Below, piece after piece: positions 4,813 through 37,500 of a stretch of 52,188 bases of DNA. The translations under genes were made by a program, and so were the position numbers. The first letter of the stretch is position 1. Each line of letters opens with the position of its first letter. The DNA is taken from assembly GCA_000934665.2 (NCBI GenBank), contig JYFJ02002706.1:1-52188 (forward strand), written 5' to 3'. The notes beneath the pieces were generated by a model that was given only the letters and a program-made list of their open reading frames with translations, did no database searches and had not been told where the DNA came from. The DNA comes from Catajapyx aquilonaris (lineage: Eukaryota).

Positions 4813-7800
4813 ATGTCGAAAAGCCTGGTCCAAGAATTTGATGAACTCACTCGGCAATCTTCCACCTTTCATAATGGCTGTGAAACAGGTTTGGTTGACA
4901 ACATTTGCTGTGCATTTACAGCAATAATACATTTGTGTATCATTTTTTAGAATTCCTTCAGTTCGTGGGAAACCAGCGGGAATGCATGCGTGGATGTCTG
5001 TCAACAAAGGATCATAGTCGGAAGCTACAGCAAGAGCTGAGAGATGTCATCAAGAACAATGAACGCCGGGAAGAGGCAGCTCGACGTCTCCTTAACAATG
5101 AGATGGCAAAAAGGCGACATGCTGAGGGGAGAGTCAAAGAATTAGTAAGGATTCAATGTAGTACTTTCATCTCAGGATTAGTTTTCGAATGTTTGATACG
5201 GTAATATACTACAGCAAGCTGAATTTCTTTTTGAGATTTGGCACTGGTCAGGGCAGTGCAGTGTATCTCGACAAACACTTTCATGAGCATGATTGAGTTG
5301 ATGGCAGTGCCATGTACGCTGAAGCCAGTAAGATGGCATTTCTCGTAACCTAGATTTTGCAGTAACAGGCTCTCAACTGTGCAAGGTGGTGTAGGTTTAC
5401 GTAAGCCACAGTGTGGAATGAAATGTGATGTATTACTAGCACTTTTATTTGTGTCTGTTCTTGATATCCAGAAATATATGTAGTAGCTATAATATTTTTG
5501 ATTATACAGTATGCATGACTGGATTTTACAGGAGACAATAATGTTGAAGATAAGAGATGTGGTGCAGCATGATGATGATAAATTTAGCAAGACCATGGCT
5601 ATTTGTGAATGTATCTCAACTGCATCAAATGTGACGCCAGTTGTTGCATTGAGAGATTCAGAAGGGTCTATGTTCGATGACCTCGACTTTGACCGCTCGC
5701 AGGATGACATGTGTTCATCCCGAATCATACGGTCTAGCAGGCGGCCCTCCCTCCTCAATGTCACGTCTACCTTTCTTAGACCAAAACAAGTCGTACCAGT
5801 TCATGTTGTTCCAGACATACAGGTAAGGGGTGTATATACAGTGGGGATTTACCTTATTTTACTTATTCTTGCTCCATTGCAGATAATTCGACCTTCGTCC
5901 AGTAATGGAACTACAGTTTGCGTCACTGAGGCAAGTTCTTCAAGACAGACTCCTATGGTTGGAGCAGCGTATCAAACGAATGGGTTTCAAAATGATCATC
6001 AAAACACACCATGTGAAAGGGGCTTCCCGATGACACCTCGAAGTAGTTCGGTCCTTTCCCTTGCTTCCTTGGACGAGAAGACACCCCTTGCTTGTTCCAC
6101 TTTCTGCCAGTCTGGTCCCAGCCTGGAAGCAGCTGGCATTGCCAATGGCCGTTACCCAACTCCATATGTTGTGCTTGAAGGTGCTGCTGTGGCCACCACT
6201 TCGAATTTCCAGGAGAGGGGGCACACATTTTCCACCAAGACATTGGTGAGATTTCTCAAGTGCTGTGGCTGTGGGAAAATGTGAGTATTCCAATTTACTT
6301 CATTCATTTTGTTTTTCTCTGGATACAGCAACATATATCTTGATTTGTTGGAACTCTGGAATGAGATTATTACTTTTTTAATCTTTTTGCAATATCTATC
6401 TGTATGGTGTTGTACAGTTTTGTACATTTTAGCTTAAGTTGAACTTTCTTTTTCCATACCATCGATAATAATAATTATTATTATTACAGGGCCAAGTTTG
6501 GGCATTCAGCACTGAAGTGTGAGCTCTGCAATGCTATCTGTCACATGGCTTGCGGCAGCAAGGTTCCTTTGCCATGCATTCCTGTCAATAAAACTTCTCC
6601 TCGGTCGTTCTTGGTATCTATGCCTTTCCTACTTTTTCCACACGTCATGTATGAAGGTCATGTAGATGAAAATGAGCCACAGTCATTGGGAAGAGAACCA
6701 GATGAGTTTGTCGTGACATCGTGTACACAAAACGAAGGCTGTACCAGTGTAGCATTATGACACACTGGGAGTAGGACATTTGGTCACTCGACACAGTCGC
6801 AGTGTGCTTTTGTTCAGGACCGCACCCATTCAAAAAGACTGTCCACTCAGACATGGGCCTTTGTTTTGTGTATAAGATGTCACGACAAACCCATCCAGAA
6901 ATTTGTTGTGAGACCATGGCTTGTTTTCATCTGAATGACCCTTACATTCAGAACAAGCACTTCTATCACTGCCTCATTTTAATTCGCATGCACTGATGAG
7001 GATATCGTCTCAAATTACATGAATTTCATTTTATACTTCGGTACTGATTCAAGCAAAAGGTAACTTCTCACATCTGGAGGAAGGGACCAGTCCAGCTCTT
7101 GACCTGGATGGGTCCTGTGGATGTGTCTGGCAACAAACAGGCTTGCGACTAGGTCACTTCCCACAGATATGAGAGTAGACCGTCAAGTAAACAAATCCAA
7201 CATCCCACTGTTTTTTTGTGGTTTCACTTTGTTTCATTCAGATTACGTGACACAGGCTTCTGGGATGATACCTGCACAATTTATAGGCCTTCAGCATTTG
7301 CTCAAATTGGCATGAATCAGAGCCCTTCATGATTTTACAACTGTGGTTTTTGTTGCAGGTGGCTCTTGCTGACTGTGCCCCAACAATTCCGCCAATGATA
7401 CCGTCACTGGTCGTGCACTGCATCAGTGAAATAGAGCGCCAGGGGCTGAAAGACATTGGTCTTTACATACTAAATGTGCCAAGGACTGAAGCCGACATAC
7501 TCAAAAATAGCTTCTTGAGAGGAAAGTATGGGCCTCCCAATCTATCTGGTGTGGATATCCACGTGCTGTGTGGTTGCCTGAAGCTTTTCTTTCAATCCAT
7601 GGAAGAGCCACTAATCACTTGCCTCCACTGGAAGAAGGTTGCAGAGGCAGCAGAGGGTAATGGAGACCTCAAGATCATCATCTCCGATCTTCCTCAACCC
7701 AACAGGGACACCCTCGCTTTCTTGATCTTGCATCTGCAAAGGTATGCAATAGTATAAGGAAGGTGTCGCCAGGTGAATCAATTACTTTTTCAATGTAATG

Positions 7801-8550
7801 TAAACATCACCCATTACTCCAGTACATCCAGACCTAAAAGTTCTCCCAGAAATTCTAATAAGAGATGACGATGCTTTAAGAATGTCACAAGATGGGTGAT
7901 GTATACCTGTACTTGATTTTTTTCAAAAGGTTTTCCCAGATATCAGGGTGATGAGAAACACTTTCAATGAAATGTGTGCATTGAAGTGGTGACAAATCAA
8001 GCCTTTTCCCCATAAAATCAGGGTAGCAGCTGAGCACGAATGCAACAAAATGTCAGCTTCTGTACTGGCCAAGGAATTTGGCCCCTTCATAGTCGGATAC
8101 TCAGAAGCTGATCCTAGGACGACTATCATGGTGAATGATGTGTCGAAGCAAAAGATGGTAAATGTGTAATGGTGAGAGTTAGGTTATTTTAAGTCCATGG
8201 TAAACTGAGAATTCTCCATTTGATGTGCAGGTGGTGGAAAAGCTGATGTGTCTCCCTGCCGACTATTGGTCAGCATTTCTAGACATGAAGGTCACTCGTC
8301 CACAGGAGTCACTGGTGTACACAGCATCTGTTGAGACTCCCAAGGTGCCTGCGAAGTAAGCCCTGATTTTAATCCCTATGGTACTGCATATGAACCAACA
8401 TGGCATGTCACTTTCCAACACCGATCACATTTAAACAGATTTAACATAGTTCAACCTTGGTTTAATAATAATAATAAACTAATAATAGGAAACTCTTATT
8501 TCAGATTTTTTGCCAAGAGGAAAAACCTTTATCAATCAAAGAAACGCTGA
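4813..8550 (+). CDS. RACGAP1: RacGAP1 paralogue B, full length (coiled coil, C1, RhoGAP), arginine finger replaced by Ile
   Basis: Exons 4813-4888, 4951-5144, 5532-5822, 5883-6280, 6490-6613, 7359-7741, 8022-8157, 8231-8355, 8505-8550(TGA); GT-AG, phases consistent, no internal stop. N-terminus MSKSLVQEFDELTR..EFLQF. C1 domain HTFSTKT..CCGC..CELC..CHMAC..LPC. GAP domain has GLYILN in place of GIYRIP. Confidence 0.9.
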
Positions 8551-9502: not shown

Positions 9503-12212
9503 ATGGCCACTCTGGAGTCTCTGATGGAAGTCTCCCTTCGCAATGAGAAGCTTCTGGAGTGTTTGGTCTCTCGTGTGGACTGGTGTCAGGAGGCCATTGG
9601 AAGGATGGAGGGTTGGATGAAGAAGAAGCGTGGAAGGGAAGGGGCAGAAGGTAGACTGAGAGAATTTTCATGATCATTTAGGAACCACTCTGTAATCATC
9701 GGATATTAATATACAGCTTTGCATTCCAGACGTTGCTTCAGGCCAGTTGCTTCCCACCGAGTTTGTTTCTGTCGACACTGGAGATGCAGGCAGCGAGTCA
9801 ATGCCTGTGGGTAACATTGAAGAGGACATAAAAGTGGAGGAAGAGGATTGGGAACCAGAGCAGGTGATAGACTGAAAATTAAAGTGCCAGTAACCTTTTT
9901 AGTCAATTGAATAAAATGTGTTCTTGCTTTTTAGGGGAGCTGGATTAGGGGTGAAGCAGAGACAGCCAAAAACATCCGTGAAATCGCTTCACTTGTCAGC
10001 AATGTTGATTCAGAATTTACCTCGGCAGAAGTTCATTCCCACGGGATTCAAGGATCAGACGTCCTTCAAGAGGGAACACTGAAGCAGGAGACGGGCATGG
10101 AGAGTGAGTTATGGAGCCAGGTATGGTCATTGCTTGATTACTTGAGGAGGTGGAAGCTAAAAGCGGCTCAATTGACCAAACCTAATTTCCAGGAGAAAGT
10201 GCTCTACTTTTCAGTTTTGGTTTGGTTTGGTGCAAATGTGAATCCCACCATTTCCTCCTCTTGTTATTGTTCCAAGATTAGTCATGTCTAACTAGGTATT
10301 GGTTCATTAGGTGCACTTTTGCTCTTGAAAATTTTCATGGCAGTGCCAGCTCCTAAGGTGCCAAAAGTGCAGATAGCTACTTTTGACTTCCACATCCTCA
10401 CATGATTGTGTAGTGTTTGTACAATGTACAGTACATAATCTTGTAAAAAAAATTATTTCAATTATGGGACAGCCACGATGTAAATGAAGGAATTAAATAA
10501 TTTTTGATAAATCTTGCTCAATATTTTGTTGAATGCTGCAGAGATACTTTGTTGAAAATAATACGTAGAATACTCCCAAACGTGTTAACATTTTTCTCTA
10601 ATGACATATTGAAATAATTTTTGTCATGCTTGAGAGATAATTAATGCACATTGTTTCCATGGAAATGTGGCAGCTGCAAACAAGGTCGAAGAATTAATAA
10701 GGAAGTCATTATGCCAATGCATCATGTGTTGTTACCTCCGCACATTTATATCAATATGGTAGCAGTGCCATATTTTATGACGAGTTTAAAGCAGGGAAAC
10801 AGTCGGCTTGCAATTGTGATGATTATATTTTGGCACTTGAGGAACTCGCTACTTGTGTCAGTTACCTGCCAGATTTCCACTGGTGAATTATTGGTAATCC
10901 ATGTCTGATTAGATTATAATAGTCTTCATTTATTCGTGATTTTTCCGCAGGCCTCCACTTCTGCAACCTGGGAGAACACTGAGTCCATCAAAGTTGAGGC
11001 GATTCCATTAGAGGCAAGTGTTTCACATAATAGTTTAGCACATGGCCCATGTCAAAGAGTAAAAATGAGGATGCAGTTTACTGTAAGTAGTGTGAATAGA
11101 ACTGTTTAGAGAACAAGAGCAGATTAAGTACAAGTTTTACTGAATATTGCAGGTTGATGAACCAGGAAAGACCGAAATCAGTGACCTGACATTGGGTGTG
11201 AATGACTCCAGCAATGAACATGCCCCATCCAGTCACCCAGCTGATGATCCTGGTTGTGGCTCAAGTTGGAAAAATACCCAAAGGAGACAAAGGAAGGTAT
11301 GTTTGTCCCCTGTGTCCGAGTGTTCCAATGTCATAAGTGCATTAATTTGTAAGATTTTGTTGAAAAGTAAAGAAAGACTTGCACTTTCATACATGTATGT
11401 CAGTTTCAGTTTATGTAGTGAATCTTCAGAATTTAAGACATTGTGCATTACTTTTTGATTCAACATCGCATTGAAACTTTGGTAGAATTAGCTGAATTGG
11501 CTTCTATCTTGGATTTAAGGAAGGCCACAGATTGTCATGCAACTAATCCCAACAACTTTTGAATTCTTTGTAGCGCAAGCAACTAATGCAGCCAACTGAA
11601 ACAGAGAGTTCAAACATCACTGATGGCTTCTCTGCTGAGTACCAGGGGACTGCTGGTGCTTTGGATACAGTGAAAGGACAGGAGCTGTCAGGAAAGAAAT
11701 GGCATCAGTGTGATCAATGCTCATATGAAACGCAAGACAGTGCAAACTTCAGGAGGCATAAAATAGGTCACAGAAGTGGTGAAGAGGATTTAGGTTGCAG
11801 TGGTCACGAAAAGCGATTTGCCTCTAACCAATACATGCAGTTGCATTATCATCCTGACCCTCTTGGTGTTGCCGCTTTTTCTTGTGAAGTTTGTGGTAGG
11901 AGGTTTAGTGAGAAGAGCAGTTTGGAGGAGCACAAGCTGACCCACACTGACAAGAAGCAGCATTCATGTGAAATATGCAAAAAATCCTTCACTCATGCTC
12001 GACAATTGAAGTATCACATGGATGTTCATACTGCAGAAAGTAACCCTTGCTCCTATTGTGGCAAAATGTTTCGGTACAGGTCTCAATTGGCTGAACATTT
12101 GAGGGTCCACACTGGTGAGAAGCCGTATTGTTGTGACATATGCGAGAAGAAGTATGCTCGTCGTTCTGGCTTAAATCATCATAAGAAAACCCACATATCG
12201 GAAGGGTCATAG
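9503..12212 (+). CDS. C2H2 zinc-finger protein (five intact fingers plus one degenerate; acidic N-terminal half)
   Basis: Exons 9503-9650, 9730-9863, 9935-10120, 10951-11013, 11153-11296, 11574-12212(TAG); phases consistent if intron 11014-11152 is GC-AG. The last exon has CxxC..HxxxH fingers and an HTGEKPY linker. IKVE motifs occur in exons 2 and 4. The start codon (gccATGG) is less certain than the finger exon. Confidence 0.85.
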
Positions 12213-31480: not shown

Positions 31481-34400
31481 TTACTCCATATTGTCCGAAG
31501 GCGGCAAGTTCCTCTTCACTGGTCTGATACACCGCGTGCCAGACTGTTGCGCTCGCAGGCTGAGACACACGTAACAATCGGTTTGTTCTTCCCTGGACGG
31601 TCCTGCTGGAGCTTTGTAAGGTTCGTCGCGATCCGTGTGAGTCGCGGACGTCGATCGGACCTTCGACGAGGATCTTCTGGCTGTCGGCGTCACAGGGGCT
31701 GACGACGACGGCGTACGCCGTGGAGGTGTTTGCGGGCGCACCGTCATGTGCGGCAGCGGGCTCTTCGGTGTTTGCAATGTTCCGGGTACCGTCGCAGGGT
31801 TGATGAGCGTCAAGGAGACGACATTGGACGAGTTCGGAGTGGACGCTGGAGACTGTGCTTGCGAGTTGTAGTTGAAGATGGATGAGGCAGCTATGGCCAG
31901 AGCTCGAAGCGACGTCGGCGACGGCACTGGGGTGGCGTCCGTGTCTTCGGAGGTGATTTCCTCGGTTGAGACAGCGTGGCTGGAATGTCTTTCGTCATAG
32001 AAGGACAACTTTGACCCGTCGCTCGGAGTGGCGCTCTGCGTCAGGAGCGTGTCCAGGCTGCTGCTGTCGCTGACCGGTGTCCTCGCTTGTCGTCTTTGTG
32101 CCGAAGAGGTCGAGGGCATTTGGGTCATTGATATAGGCGTTGACATGCTTAGAGGGCTGCTACTAACTTCCTGTTCATCCGCTTCTTCTTCATCAAATGT
32201 TGATGTGTTCTGCTATCAGAATAATCAGGATCAAAGCGAGAAAACTGGATTATGCTATGGGTTCATTTATTTTAAATTCATTCATTTAAAAATAGCCATA
32301 ATACACATTGAAATAATTATGCAGAGGAAGAAGTTACATGCAAGTACACTCGCATGTTCATTTTTATTAACTTGTTAAATTTGGTTTAAAATCTTGCAAA
32401 GTATTCATACAGGCAGACGTATAGTGGAGGGGAGTATTTTTTATAGACATGTATGTCCCTCCTAAGATTGATCACGAGCAACTGCATCAGTACTTGCCGT
32501 TTCCGCCACGACACTGGTTCCACTCTCTGGAGTCCTGAGCCTTCCTCTGCTCGCCACTCTGTACTGCAGGTCGGAGTCATCGGTTGTCGTGCTGAAGTCG
32601 TCGTCGCAGGAAACAGATGAAGACTCGCTGAACAGCATTTTTGAGGCACCCACTCTCCCTGCGACGACCCCTCTCTGCGGGACTGACTGAAACGTACCCT
32701 GAACGTGATGATGCCCTTCCTCGGGTCCTAGGATCCCGTCGAATATTTTATTGTGGTGGTAGCATATGTACGTGAGGAGACACACGAAATTCTCGCTCTC
32801 CCTGACCGATGGCTTCTGAAAAGATCAGCCAGACGATAGTCCACATATTGTACAAGCACGCCCTATAATCTGAGATGTGTCACAAGCCCTCGTCATGAAA
32901 TTACCTCCACTCACCTTCTGAAGAAGGAACGTGCCCGAAGACATCCTCCGCACTAATGCGGGCGCGAAGAAACGGACCAAGTTGTCCAGCCTTTCCGGAA
33001 TGATCTGGCGCGATTTGGGAGGACACGAAATGTCCCTTATCATAGCCATGATGCCGCGGAAGAAAAGCTGCGCCTGCGGACTCAGCAGCTGCAAATCTCT
33101 GCGAAAGGACAAGAAACGGCATCTGGATCGGTAATATTTCAGCCCCAAAGCATCTGGCTTACTCTATCATGTCTTCCCGGATCCAGCATGGCATCTCCTC
33201 TTGCCACGAGCCTCCAGTCATGCACACCCTGGACCTCTGGGCATGTTCCTTCCAGGCTTCGTACATGTCGAAGGTCTTCTTTTTCCCCTTGAGCGCCAGG
33301 TATCCTCCCAGCACTGGCACAGGCAGCTTCTTGCAGAAGTTTCGCAAGACGAAAAGGATGGTGGCCGGAAAGAAGTTGTCCAGGACGTCCTCCAGGGCCT
33401 TGTCCAAAGGGATACCGGACTGCAGGATGGTCTTGAGCACCGCCTTGTCCTCCTGGCATGACTTGCAGTCGACGCCCACCAGAGGATTGGACAGGAGCCT
33501 GGCCCTTTTGGAGGTGTATCGGAAGAGGATCTGCGTTGGTGAAAAACCGATGATGCGATGCATCGGTTGTGTATAGGGGGGACATTGTGATAAATTGAGA
33601 GGTTTGCCTTACGTTAAGCGTTGGATCCAGTTCATGTCTGCCGTAGATATCTTCTAATTTGACACCGAACTGAAACCTGCAAAGAAAAGATCAAAATGAA
33701 AAAGTGCACCCAAAAAAAAACACTTGTTATATTTTAGAGTTTTAGACGATAGATGTGCTTGACGCCAGCGAGCCTGTTAATCCTTATCCTGTTGATGAAA
33801 GTGCACCACTTTTAGGATTAAGGTTTCATGGGATTTTTTTAAAAGGGCGAAATTGCCCCTTTAGTTTATTTCAGCAAATTCGATTCCACTAAGGCGATAA
33901 TCACATGCTAATTTCAGTTTTGGAAACAATATTTAATCCTGCTAGTTATGCCACCCACCATCCATCCCGGCTGGCCGAGTCCCTTAACCCGCAGGATATT
34001 TTCTGACATTTGCTGAGAAAGCGAAACAAAAGTTAGCATGGGATTATCGTCGTAAAGTAGACACAATCTCATAAATAAACTCTATAGAGAAATACAGTAC
34101 TCAAAATTCACAAAGGAGCTAATCCGATAGGGCAGGCAGGCTAGAAATTATTATGCGAAAATTCATTTCTCTTAATTGAATCATTTGGGACAATTTATTT
34201 TTGAATAATTGACGGAGTGACTCATTTAACTCGAAGGCTTCGTGTTCTTTAACCTCGTTATTATTATTACACTACGCCTAAGTCTGGCTTATGGAACACT
34301 GCGACGGATCAAAGCGCAAACTTTACCCGAGATGCATATAAGAAGTAGCTCCGTAAAATAATTACGCTTATAACTCACTTGCAGATTACGATGAAAAATT

Positions 34401-34549
34401 TATTAAAAATTCATTTAGAGCACGTGCTCGTTGCAATGCTGTAGAAATTACAATGCGTCAGTTCCTTCATTGTTATACACTGTTATAGATACTGACCTAT
34501 TTTTCACAAGACATGGGTCCGAGACCTGAGATCTCATGCAAAACGCCAT
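31481..34549 (-). CDS. Highly divergent RhoGAP-domain protein (~580 aa) with Ser/Thr/Pro-rich tail; probable pseudo-GAP
   Basis: Exons 34549-34497, 33676-33613, 33530-33163, 33122-32915, 32815-32498, 32212(or 32209)-31481; all phases join (2,0,2,0,0), start gccATGG. Spliced protein: MAFCMRSQVSDPCLVKNRFQFGVKLEDIYGRHELDPTLNILFRYTSKRARLLSNPLVG..ATILFVLRNFCKKLPVPVL..LQLLSPQAQLFFRGIMAMIRDIS..LDNLVRFFAPALVR..NFVCLLTYICYHHNKIF. This follows the RhoGAP motif order FGVxL / LKxFLRELPEPL / LPxxN / NLAxVFGPxL / LIxHxxxIF. Joining the last exon needs a GC donor. Confidence 0.75.
33778..34125. promoter_or_regulatory. Cluster of five TAATCC (K50 homeodomain) sites; candidate enhancer
   Basis: TAATCC/GGATTA at 33778, 33815, 33934, 34041 and 34120, within intron 1 of the divergent RhoGAP gene. 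Confidence 0.4.
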
Positions 34550-37500
34550 GGCTCAAGGGGGATTCTGCCTCTCTACGGCTGAACTGGAAGTCATGCCCCG
34601 CGTCATGCCAATTGCGGAACAATTTTCCCAACAAAAAAAAACAAAATCCCCGGTCCTTTGTTGCAGGAGAATAAAATAATCAAAAGGTAGCCAACCTGGT
34701 CAAAAAGGCTTCAGGTCGATACCAAGGTTACGGTAGGTCAGTATCCCGCTCGTATATTTTCAACCCAACCCTCACTTAACTTTTTCGAAAACCGTCAACC
34801 CATCATTCCGCACGAGAAGGTGAAGAAAAGAGGGGGGGGGGGTTGGAAATCACGGGTAGAGATTCCCGTGAGGCCATTTGTCGCCTGAAGTGAGCACTGA
34901 TGGATGCAAACGACGTGGAATGCTCGCCGGATGAGGCACAGGTCGTTGGTCTTACTTCATCAGGTTTCACACCTGTTGGCAATGCCAGTTCAGGAGCCCT
35001 AATTAGTAATTTCAAGCGCAGAAAACAGTCCCGTTTGATTAAAGGACATGCTCACTTTAAAATCACTGCTGATTTGTACGTTTGTTGAATTTTTCCACCA
35101 AGTGACAACAACTGTTGCCATTGAAATAGCAGTAGCTTCCTTAGTATTCCAATGAATTCCTCACATAATAGATTTTTGAATAAATTTATTCGATTAATCT
35201 GAAATTTTTGCCTACTACAAAGTGACGAGGCGAGGGTGGATTTAAAAAAAGCATTGCTTTAAAATAACATTTTTTAAAAAACAATTTTGCTTCCATTTTC
35301 AACAGCTTGGTATAGGCAAGTGCGATTCCCTGCAATCTGGGAATTTATATCGTTCCTTTATCTCGTGTTCAATAGGACAGTAGTGCTTCATCATGACGTC
35401 TTGAGACCTCCCTCGCACTGTGAATTTACGATTCTTCTGGTCTTTGTATCAAATCCCTCGTCTGGATTCAATTTAGTGACGTAATTTAATACCTAGTGCT
35501 GGCCTGTATCAAACGTCAGGTCGCCTGACAGAGAACCATATTGCAGCTGGGTTGGTGATGAAAATTGATACTTGCATGCTGAAAATCACCTCTGGAGTTA
35601 TAGTCTCTGCTAGACTCTGAAATTCCCTCAAGTTGATGTCTTAAACTTTTTGTTGCCTTTTTTTTGCATGTCTCAGTACTTGCAGATTGCTGTTCCTTAC
35701 ACAGAATAATAGTGTTAAAACATGCGGCACTGTGCTGTTAGTTACTGTATCCTGCTGGGTGTTTCATGAACATGAACGCGATAATTTTTGCAGCAATAAA
35801 GCTTAACTGTCCTTGTCGGCAGGGACGTTTGAATGATGATTCTGCAGAGTACTTTTATTTCAGGGTAATTTTCCACTGCAGGACAATGTGCCACCCTGTA
35901 CTGTACAGTACATCAAATTAGGATAATTGAAAGCACTTCTTCATGCAGACATGAGCACTGAGCAGTACGTGATGGCGAAAAGCCTCGTTTCATTTTTACT
36001 CCATCAGCAAGAAGCAAATGAGGTCCATGCTTCATTTTATAATTTGTTTCACTTTCTTGAATGTTTGCCAAGGATAAACCCAGCGCGCAACGTTATTCTG
36101 CGCAAGATGGAAATGCGAGATAGGCCGCATTATCAAGGTAATTATGTTGACATCCTTTCCAAAGTGTATTGCGGCCGGCAAGATTTGAACGTGCTCGAAA
36201 TTGCAAGTGCGACATCAAATAACGGCGAGGAGCTGGCGCTAATCTATCTTGTTTAAAACTGACAAGTGAACCGTGTGCAATAGAGCATTACCAAAAAATG
36301 TATATTGGGCCAGGTTAAAGCAGATAACTCGTCTGACAAATATTGCAGGGTTATCAACCTCTCGTGATATGAAAGCTTTAACGTGAAGGGTCACATCTGC
36401 CTGAGAAGAAGTTTAGGGGGCAAAAAAAATGCATGTCCTTCCAGAGGCTTGACTGGTGTTAGCCGCGCTCATTTGGAAAATGGGGAGGTCGGAGGGCAGA
36501 TGGAGAAATCCTGCTGAATAGTGCCTAGGATTGTAATTTGTGCGCGATAGCTCCTTCGGTCCAGGCGGTTCCCAATTGGCTCTTCCTCGTCATTATGCAG
36601 ATGCGCCCGCCCTTTACTCATCAATTGTCTTTGCAGACTTGTCAGCTGCACGCCGGATTATATTGCCCGAGTCGCCATTTTCCCACCCGAGTGAAAGGGG
36701 GGGGGGGGATTCTGTTCCATGGCTTTTCCACCATCACGGCCTCCCAGTTATACAGTTACGTACTATTGGTGCCCGGATTTTGGGAGATGGGCCCTCAAAC
36801 GGCTCTCTCATGTCCTACTGAATGTGTGGATTTAAAGGGAAAAGTTATTATTACCTATTCTCCACGGCTAGGTAAATGAGGCTGGTTGTTAGAGAACTAA
36901 GCACATTTTGCGACTTTGTTGCCATTCTGAAAACATGACGGGGAAAGTAAGCAAACATATTGTCCGTTTTCCATAATTTGATTTATAAGCTCGCTCAGAA
37001 AACGCTGTTAAACTTCAAATAAGCAGAATTTTGATGCTTATTATGTCGTGGCCTCTCGGTAAAAAATAACGTTAGATATAACATGCGGAACTTGTGATGT
37101 ATGATCACTATGCGATTAAGTATTACCCATCATGTGTCGTATACTCTGAACACTCTGCATTGTTATAATACTGTACATTGTGACTACATAATGGGCGCAA
37201 ATAGGAGTAAATTGCTTTTGTTGTTATTGTTGCTGTTGCTTACAAAAAAACAGCCAGTTTTTGTTGCGGCTAAACATAGTTCATTAATAACGTATTGCTA
37301 GATCACACCCAGCATAATGCTGTATTGTATTGGCTTTTAAATTAGCGTCGAATTTTATTGGTTAATCTGAAAAGGCCCGCCTCTCTGAAACAGTGACGCT
37401 TTTGGGGTAACCTTTTCCATGCCACCGCATTTGGCTAATTCACCGAGGACCTGAAGATTGGATTGGGAGGTCCTGTGTTCCCCGCCAATTCCGTCTCTCC

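Follow-up and report, generated by a model that had tools for sequence, protein, structure and literature searches.

RhoGAP-like domains lacking the catalytic arginine finger are described in several proteins. Human examples named in the relevant part of one source are ARHGAP36, DEP1/2 (DEPDC1/DEPDC1B), FAM13B, OCRL1 and INPP5P (INPP5B) (PMC8305018), and ARHGAP36 carries Thr227 at the finger position (PMC8128262). Venom or calyx RhoGAP families of the parasitoid wasps Leptopilina and Venturia derive from RacGAP1 and are lineage-specific expansions of near-bare domains; in the sections that deal with them, most copies are said to have lost the arginine and other contact residues, and a few to have kept it (bioRxiv 10.1101/2023.06.05.543686). 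Here, a gene from Catajapyx aquilonaris is set beside these systems. It lies at positions 31,481 to 34,549 of contig JYFJ02002706.1 (assembly GCA_000934665.2), on the minus strand; the whole stretch of that contig which was analysed, 52,188 nucleotides long, is called the window. The window gene belongs to a dispersed family of paralogs and probably encodes a protein of RhoGAP fold that has lost its catalytic arginine and works as an adaptor.

The gene consists of six minus-strand exons, which join in phases 2, 0, 2, 0 and 0 to an open frame of 571 amino acids with a single terminal stop. A TAG acceptor three bases upstream gives an alternative of 572 amino acids. A preliminary description of the window, made from the sequence alone, had proposed six exons in phase coding for about 580 amino acids; this model was borne out, and the five motifs quoted with it were all found in the stated order. 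The exons are the following:

Exon 1, 34497..34549, minus strand: ATG in a GCCATGG context, closely preceded by a TGA in the same frame; 17 whole codons and a split one, with a phase-2 donor.
Exon 2, 33613..33676, minus strand: N-terminal RhoGAP segment, FGVKLEDI up to the start of helix A.
Exon 3, 33163..33530, minus strand: helix A (ILFRY), finger loop, helix B, the LRNFCKKLPVPVL motif and the family insertion.
Exon 4, 32915..33098, minus strand: LLSPQAQLFF helix and NLVRFFAP.
Exon 5, 32498..32815, minus strand: last domain helix (LLTYICYHHNKIF), domain end at ~32738 and first part of an acidic/Ser tail, with a GC donor closing the exon.
Exon 6, 31481..32209, minus strand: 242-codon Ser/Thr/Pro-rich tail without Pfam match; the least secure part of the model.

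Translated, these exons give an N-terminus of ~18 amino acids, a putative RhoGAP domain at residues ~19-249 and a low-complexity Ser/Thr/Pro tail of ~320 amino acids.

The window gene is one of at least five paralogs, the others being referred to as C1277, C3126, C39 and C2880. The genome searched amounted to 285.6 Mb, and each search scored the best candidates only, so that five members are a lower bound. Searches with exons 3 and 4 led to C1277 (exon 4 alone, E 3.7e-5), a gene of six exons with an open 362-aa protein that is 31% identical to the window protein over 241 columns (blastp E 1e-15). Exon 4 of C1277 as query gave six matches, namely itself, the window gene, C2880, C39, C3126 and one chance match. 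Four more genome searches found no further family members among the best candidates scored. C2880, C39 and C3126 were compared exon by exon, without full spliced models, and their gene ends are left open. Four other candidate loci (L003, L004, L049 and L066) were rejected on inspection as chance matches, and L058 and L059, scored against the family profiles, did not get below E 2.2.

The family is also recognizable by its introns. Introns 1-3 of the window gene have the same position and phase in C1277, including the phase-2 intron after exon 1. Intron positions 1 and 2 are common to C39, C2880 and C3126 (flanking AG/GT), and C39 and C2880 also keep intron position 3. Ahead of the last helix, all three have a phase-0 intron. 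Exon 2 has a counterpart of 21 codons with equal boundaries in the same three paralogs and one of 22 codons in C1277. Every member ends in a low-complexity or acidic tail. Four of the five members sit on contigs other than that of the window, and no shared neighbour genes were seen among the family loci. The C1277 paralog is followed directly downstream by a Rab-GAP TBC-domain gene in the same orientation (L005 3545-4655, minus strand). The C3126 paralog has a phospholipase B-like gene (Phospholip_B, E 1e-54; L054 1936-6086, minus strand) upstream of it, on the opposite strand.

Protein-database searches found no relative outside this genome with exon 3 (188 candidates), the family alignment (8000 candidates) or the C3126 exon (491 candidates), in each case among longer proteins only, and the queries were single exons, with which distant orthologs may be missed. 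A two-sequence profile, likewise from a single exon, gave 0 matches at E<=0.001 among 1.84 billion representative proteins. The literature yielded no published account of such a family, which is a weak negative.

The RhoGAP fold was assessed against a reference set of 20 of 30 RhoGAP segments from the same genome, the RacGAP copies being left out. Under a hidden Markov model (HMM) of these 20 segments, the window protein scored 8.0 bits and C1277 reached 14.3; none of 1000 shuffles of each sequence reached the real score (maximum 3.9 and 5.3 respectively). In hhalign, the window protein and C1277 together matched the 20-segment set with a probability of 95.5 (E 1.4e-8). This alignment covers 192 columns, begins at the FG motif, reaches the last helix and has the motifs in order. 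The real score was 59.0, compared with a best of 23.4 in 100 column shuffles, and with the paralog exons added the probability was 96.0. When 8610 open reading frames were searched, the next matches after the family members were canonical RhoGAP exons. A five-row exon-3 family profile gave nine matches in the PDB, with ARHGAP20 first (E 0.096) and RalBP1 third (E 0.21). In the ESM Atlas, the top named clusters for the C3126 exon were RhoGAP and Msb1/Mug8 at 0.88-0.89, which is lead level and below firm level, and window exon 3 returned unrelated matches only (<=0.86). AlphaFold2 models of single exons had predicted local distance difference test values of 43.0 and 42.4 and were too poor for the fold searches on them, neither of which listed a RhoGAP, to inform. 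On sequence evidence, the RhoGAP fold predicted for the window protein is well supported, and the same fold claim of the preliminary description holds, HMM and hhalign being positive though Pfam is silent. The long insertion after the LPVP motif noted there is also present: the LPVP-to-LSPQ stretch measures 59 amino acids, against 36 in L013, another RhoGAP segment of this genome, which leaves an insertion of ~23 amino acids.

Two residues of exon 3 bear on the arginine finger:

Asp60, 33468..33470, minus strand: arginine-finger column in the merged alignment, with Gly58 as the alternative.
Arg43 (LFRY), 33519..33521, minus strand: in helix A, not the finger; no paralog has Arg in this column.

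In p50RhoGAP, the finger Arg85 (R85/R282) is 40 residues past the Phe of the FG motif and 22 past the helix-A Pro, and a helix-B hydrophobic residue comes 11 residues later. The corresponding distances are 39, 24 and 11 (to the helix-B Leu) for Asp60, and Arg43 lies 22 residues after Phe21 and seven after Pro36. In the merged alignment, which adds 20 canonical domains to the family, the finger column held Asp in the window protein and C1277, Lys in C3126 and Arg in C39 and C2880. The finger column is placed at Gly58 by hhalign, and Arg is absent from residues 52-66. Between the beginning of exon 3 and helix B, the family alignment is gap-free, bar one gap in C1277, and ILFRY is read as helix A because the intron common to all five paralogs fixes its register. 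Arg43 as the finger was rejected; its placement by unconstrained MAFFT requires deletion of helix A and an insertion of 16 amino acids. An earlier suggestion that the finger loop contains no Arg thus stands, neither Asp60 nor Gly58 being Arg. Its location on SNPLVGV was nearly right: this segment is without Arg, but the best register, Asp60, falls one residue beyond it (Gly58 by hhalign). The assignment of LFRY to the preceding helix is supported by the shared intron, the p50RhoGAP spacing and the lack of a paralog Arg. The window protein is probably without a catalytic arginine. The finger-less members (window, C1277 and C3126) form one clade, with support of 98/100 in the merged alignment and 89/69 in the free alignment, and the insertion of all three contains the motif W-x-E-x-[MI]-P:

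W-x-E-x-M-P-x-W motif (W148-W155), 33183..33206, minus strand: inside the ~23-aa insertion; common to C1277, with a variant form in C3126.

The reading preferred here, with a probability of about 0.62, is that the window gene is functional and encodes an adaptor of RhoGAP fold that is catalytically dead, a pseudo-GAP (GAP, GTPase-activating protein), with a regulatory tail. Asp at the finger would not stabilise the transition state of guanosine triphosphate (GTP) hydrolysis, from which we infer a non-catalytic way of working. The folded domain would dock a partner, most likely via the insertion of the family and without involvement of Rho hydrolysis, in the way described for ARHGAP36 and DEPDC1/1B. 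The insertion region presumably lies away from the GTPase face. Across the family, conservation is seen in the core and the insertion but not on the face that contacts Rho, and a Rho-independent partner is thereby suggested; weak binding of a Rho GTPase by the window protein may persist. Localisation or phospho-regulation would be supplied by the tail. Partner, localisation and tissue are what we infer throughout, and a germline-restricted role, plausible for fast-evolving duplicates, is a guess.

A number of results weigh against this reading. Pfam matched none of nine family exons at E<=10 (single exons scanned), and none of the five family genes is among the 54 genome-wide PF00620 matches. 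The PDB matches of the family profile, ARHGAP20 included, are not significant, and exon-4 profiles found no RhoGAP in the PDB (0 and 1 irrelevant match). The register of the finger may be off by two residues (Asp60 vs Gly58), and one unconstrained MAFFT alignment puts Arg43 at the finger. For the window gene itself, the ratio of nonsynonymous to synonymous substitution rates (dN/dS) against C1277 is 1.04 in exon 4 and 0.32 in exon 3, near saturation, values from which purifying selection does not follow. Descent from RacGAP is not rejected by the approximately unbiased (AU) test, which leaves the grouping of family and RacGAP at p-AU 0.071. Finally, four of the five non-catalytic Rho-contact positions are retained (two with K/R swaps), which fits Rho binding better than a role independent of Rho.

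These contact positions are central to the strongest rival. The contact determinants are named as K319, R323, N391, V394 and P398 in the part of the source that treats them (PMC8305018), corresponding to p50RhoGAP K122, R126, N194, V197 and P201.

Arg102 and Lys106, 33330..33344, minus strand: equivalents of p50RhoGAP K122/R126 (K319/R323), basic charge kept and identities swapped.

In exon 4, Asn201 and Pro208 retain N194 and P201. The dead domain might accordingly bind Rho, Rac or Cdc42 in the GTP form and either shield it from active GAPs or be recruited by it, in the way that OCRL1 is described as binding Rac1-GTP without stimulating hydrolysis (PMC8305018). We regard such a trap or effector as possible, albeit unlikely. 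Against it, Arg204 stands in place of V197, the NxM loop that precedes helix F has been rebuilt, and repulsion of the phosphate is to be expected from an acidic residue at the finger; moreover, N194 is kept in the window protein only, being lost in the four paralogs, and P201 is lost in two.

A more elaborate scheme, distinctly unlikely in our judgement, sees the family as a stepwise series from RhoGAP to a new regulator. Two members keep the finger Arg, and a derived clade has replaced it (by Asp in two) and gained a conserved insertion with W-x-E-x-M-P. On this view, the window protein would be an 'anti-GAP' of reversed charge: bound to Rho-GTP via the kept contacts, it would protect that GTPase from active GAPs, the nearby RacGAP copies among them, and couple it to a new partner via the insertion. 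Such a role would be lineage-specific, possibly in germline cytokinesis.

With regard to origin, the window gene does not count as a further RacGAP copy. It had been presented as a fourth gene some 15 kb from a cluster of three RacGAP copies (A-C); it is indeed separate from them, but it is one of the at least five dispersed paralogs and no stray. As had been claimed, its introns differ from those of the cluster, none of the four intra-domain introns matching copies A-C (by eye), and it has no C1 domain: ~18 amino acids precede the FG motif, and the Pfam scan that finds C1 in copy B finds none here. By family-profile HMM score, the RacGAP copies rank 23rd, 25th and 30th of the 30 segments, and by hhalign 23rd, 25th and 27th, so close to the bottom that the proximity of 15 kb is probably a coincidence. 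The top segments are L013, L014, L041, L019 and L026, and ARHGAP20 is the best PDB match of both L013 and L026 (E 6.5e-47 and 9.3e-20 respectively). The family forms a single clade in both trees, with support of 98/96 (free alignment) and 100/99 (merged), and the RacGAP copies are grouped with it in neither best tree.

The merged alignment makes the family sister to L013+L026 (support 83/77), a grouping that the free alignment does not resolve. An FG-type motif occurs in 14 of 23 loci examined, among which L026 alone shows an AG acceptor where the family has intron 1, with a matching phase-2 donor read by eye; a chance AG in one of 14 is not rare, and the L026 acceptor is modest support. An ARHGAP20-like ancestor is favoured as probable, RacGAP descent not being rejected by the AU value given above.

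The family could instead have arisen long ago from the RacGAP1 cluster nearby and have evolved fast since. This concerns origin and overlaps with the readings of mechanism. RacGAP1 duplicates that lose Arg have a precedent in parasitoid wasps, as far as the account describes them (bioRxiv 10.1101/2023.06.05.543686), copy B of the cluster is likewise without Arg, and the distance of ~15 kb and the AU result agree with such descent. The low ranks of RacGAP, the lack of any shared intra-domain intron and the location of four members on other contigs make it improbable.

An atypical active GAP, in which Arg43, Arg49/Arg51 or basic residues of the family supply catalysis, is highly improbable. LFRY resembles GIFR, one alignment brings Arg43 to the finger, and the F-R of C39 and L-R of C2880 at the finger column indicate that the family can keep a finger Arg. 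However, that alignment has the cost in helix A described above, the shared intron fixes ILFRY as helix A in all five paralogs, none of which offers an Arg in the Arg43 column, and the p50RhoGAP spacings fit residues 58-60 only.

That the window gene is a real gene and not a chance open frame is indicated by its codon usage and its paralogs. A synonymous codon-bias score was trained on 2285 codons of other genes, with 2000 non-genic stretches as the null. Exon 3 scored 0.275 (null maximum 0.021), exon 4 0.077 (null 99% 0.044) and exon 5 0.073 (null maximum 0.048). Exon 6 was borderline (-0.017; null 99% -0.027), and the short exons 1 and 2 were without signal (-0.14 and -0.11). In Markov resamples of exon 6, the 242-codon frame was fully open in 52 of 20000 and any frame in 156. 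The sister pair C39 and C2880 gave a dN/dS of 0.36 over 246 codons (Fisher p 2e-8), which indicates that purifying selection acts on it. A decaying, functionless duplicate or an artefactual gene model, which the extreme divergence, the absence of database relatives, the non-canonical last donor and the want of a selection estimate for the window copy might suggest, is hardly credible beside an intact 571-codon frame, splice sites kept at ~30% protein identity from the paralogs, the strong codon bias and the selection on the sister pair.

Introns 1-4 of the window gene have GT-AG borders, and the fifth differs:

Intron 5, 32210..32497, minus strand: GC-AG; AATAAA at 32368 and 32271.

Its acceptor is phase-0, and the donor must therefore also be phase-0. 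The GC site at 32497 has a position weight matrix score of 7.0, the next site 3.0 and the best phase-0 GT 0.9; 19 GT donors of the same genome, used as reference, score 1.6-8.3. At 32497, GC content drops from 55% to 32-44%. This junction is the least secure of the gene model. Reading through exon 5 meets a stop at 32462, which gives 341 amino acids, and an AATAAA lies 94 bases beyond; a short 341-aa isoform ending there may exist. Both fully modelled family genes require one GC-AG intron, the window gene at 32497 and the C1277 paralog (L005) at 6490, which may be chance or may reflect a raised rate of GC donors in the genome. No notable repeats were seen in 26-38 kb of the window.

Upstream of the window gene, at 1.4 kb and on the opposite strand, lies a 109-codon open frame without Pfam match (35927-36256, plus strand). 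In the RacGAP cluster, copy B (7287-8160, plus strand) has GLYI and not GIYR at the finger, the catalytic Arg being lost, and keeps its C1 exon (C1_1, E 2.9e-4). Copies A (GIYR) and C (ALYR) keep the finger Arg. A C2H2 zinc-finger exon with five fingers (11574-12212, plus strand) lies between copies B and C. Elsewhere in the genome, L027 (C2375:3652-4035) is a Pfam-detectable RhoGAP with GIYK, hence Lys at the finger, and is a probable further pseudo-GAP. Two near-identical RhoGAP genes on separate contigs, L033/L041 (C3397) and L038 (C2026), may have arisen by recent duplication or may be haplotypes that were not collapsed.

Pseudo-RhoGAPs were already known, as were private expansions of RhoGAPs; the lineage-specific subfamily is new. 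A five-gene family derived from RhoGAP can lie wholly below Pfam and database detection, and RhoGAP censuses of such genomes are consequently incomplete. The family also offers a natural series, from Arg kept to Arg replaced by Lys and by Asp, in which the turning of a GAP into a non-catalytic adaptor can be tested.

Among known proteins, the best though weak sequence match of the family is ARHGAP20 (human RhoGAP domain, PDB 3msx), together with L013 and L026, the ARHGAP20-like genes of this genome. The likeness consists of a compact spacing from the FG motif to helix A, the Trp that L013 has in the helix following the LP motif, and the acceptor of L026 at the intron-1 position. The window protein differs in the replacement of the finger Arg by Asp, the ~23-aa insertion and the lack of a long N-terminal region, and its gene has four intra-domain introns, whereas L013 has none. 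Its identity to canonical RhoGAP domains is ~19%. With the human finger-less proteins it shares a RhoGAP-type domain without catalytic Arg, and a non-catalytic role is expected. No sequence link between the family and these proteins was detected, and unlike them it shows no DEP, phosphatase or other companion domain and is a private multigene family below Pfam detection. The wasp families resemble it as private expansions in which Arg was lost in most copies and kept in a few. They are RacGAP1-derived and Pfam-recognisable, and the Leptopilina ones are described with signal peptides (bioRxiv 10.1101/2023.06.05.543686). Exon 1 of the window gene has no hydrophobic core by eye and thus no evident signal peptide. 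In contrast to the wasp families, the origin of the Catajapyx family leans towards an ARHGAP20-like RhoGAP, and all of its members carry long tails.

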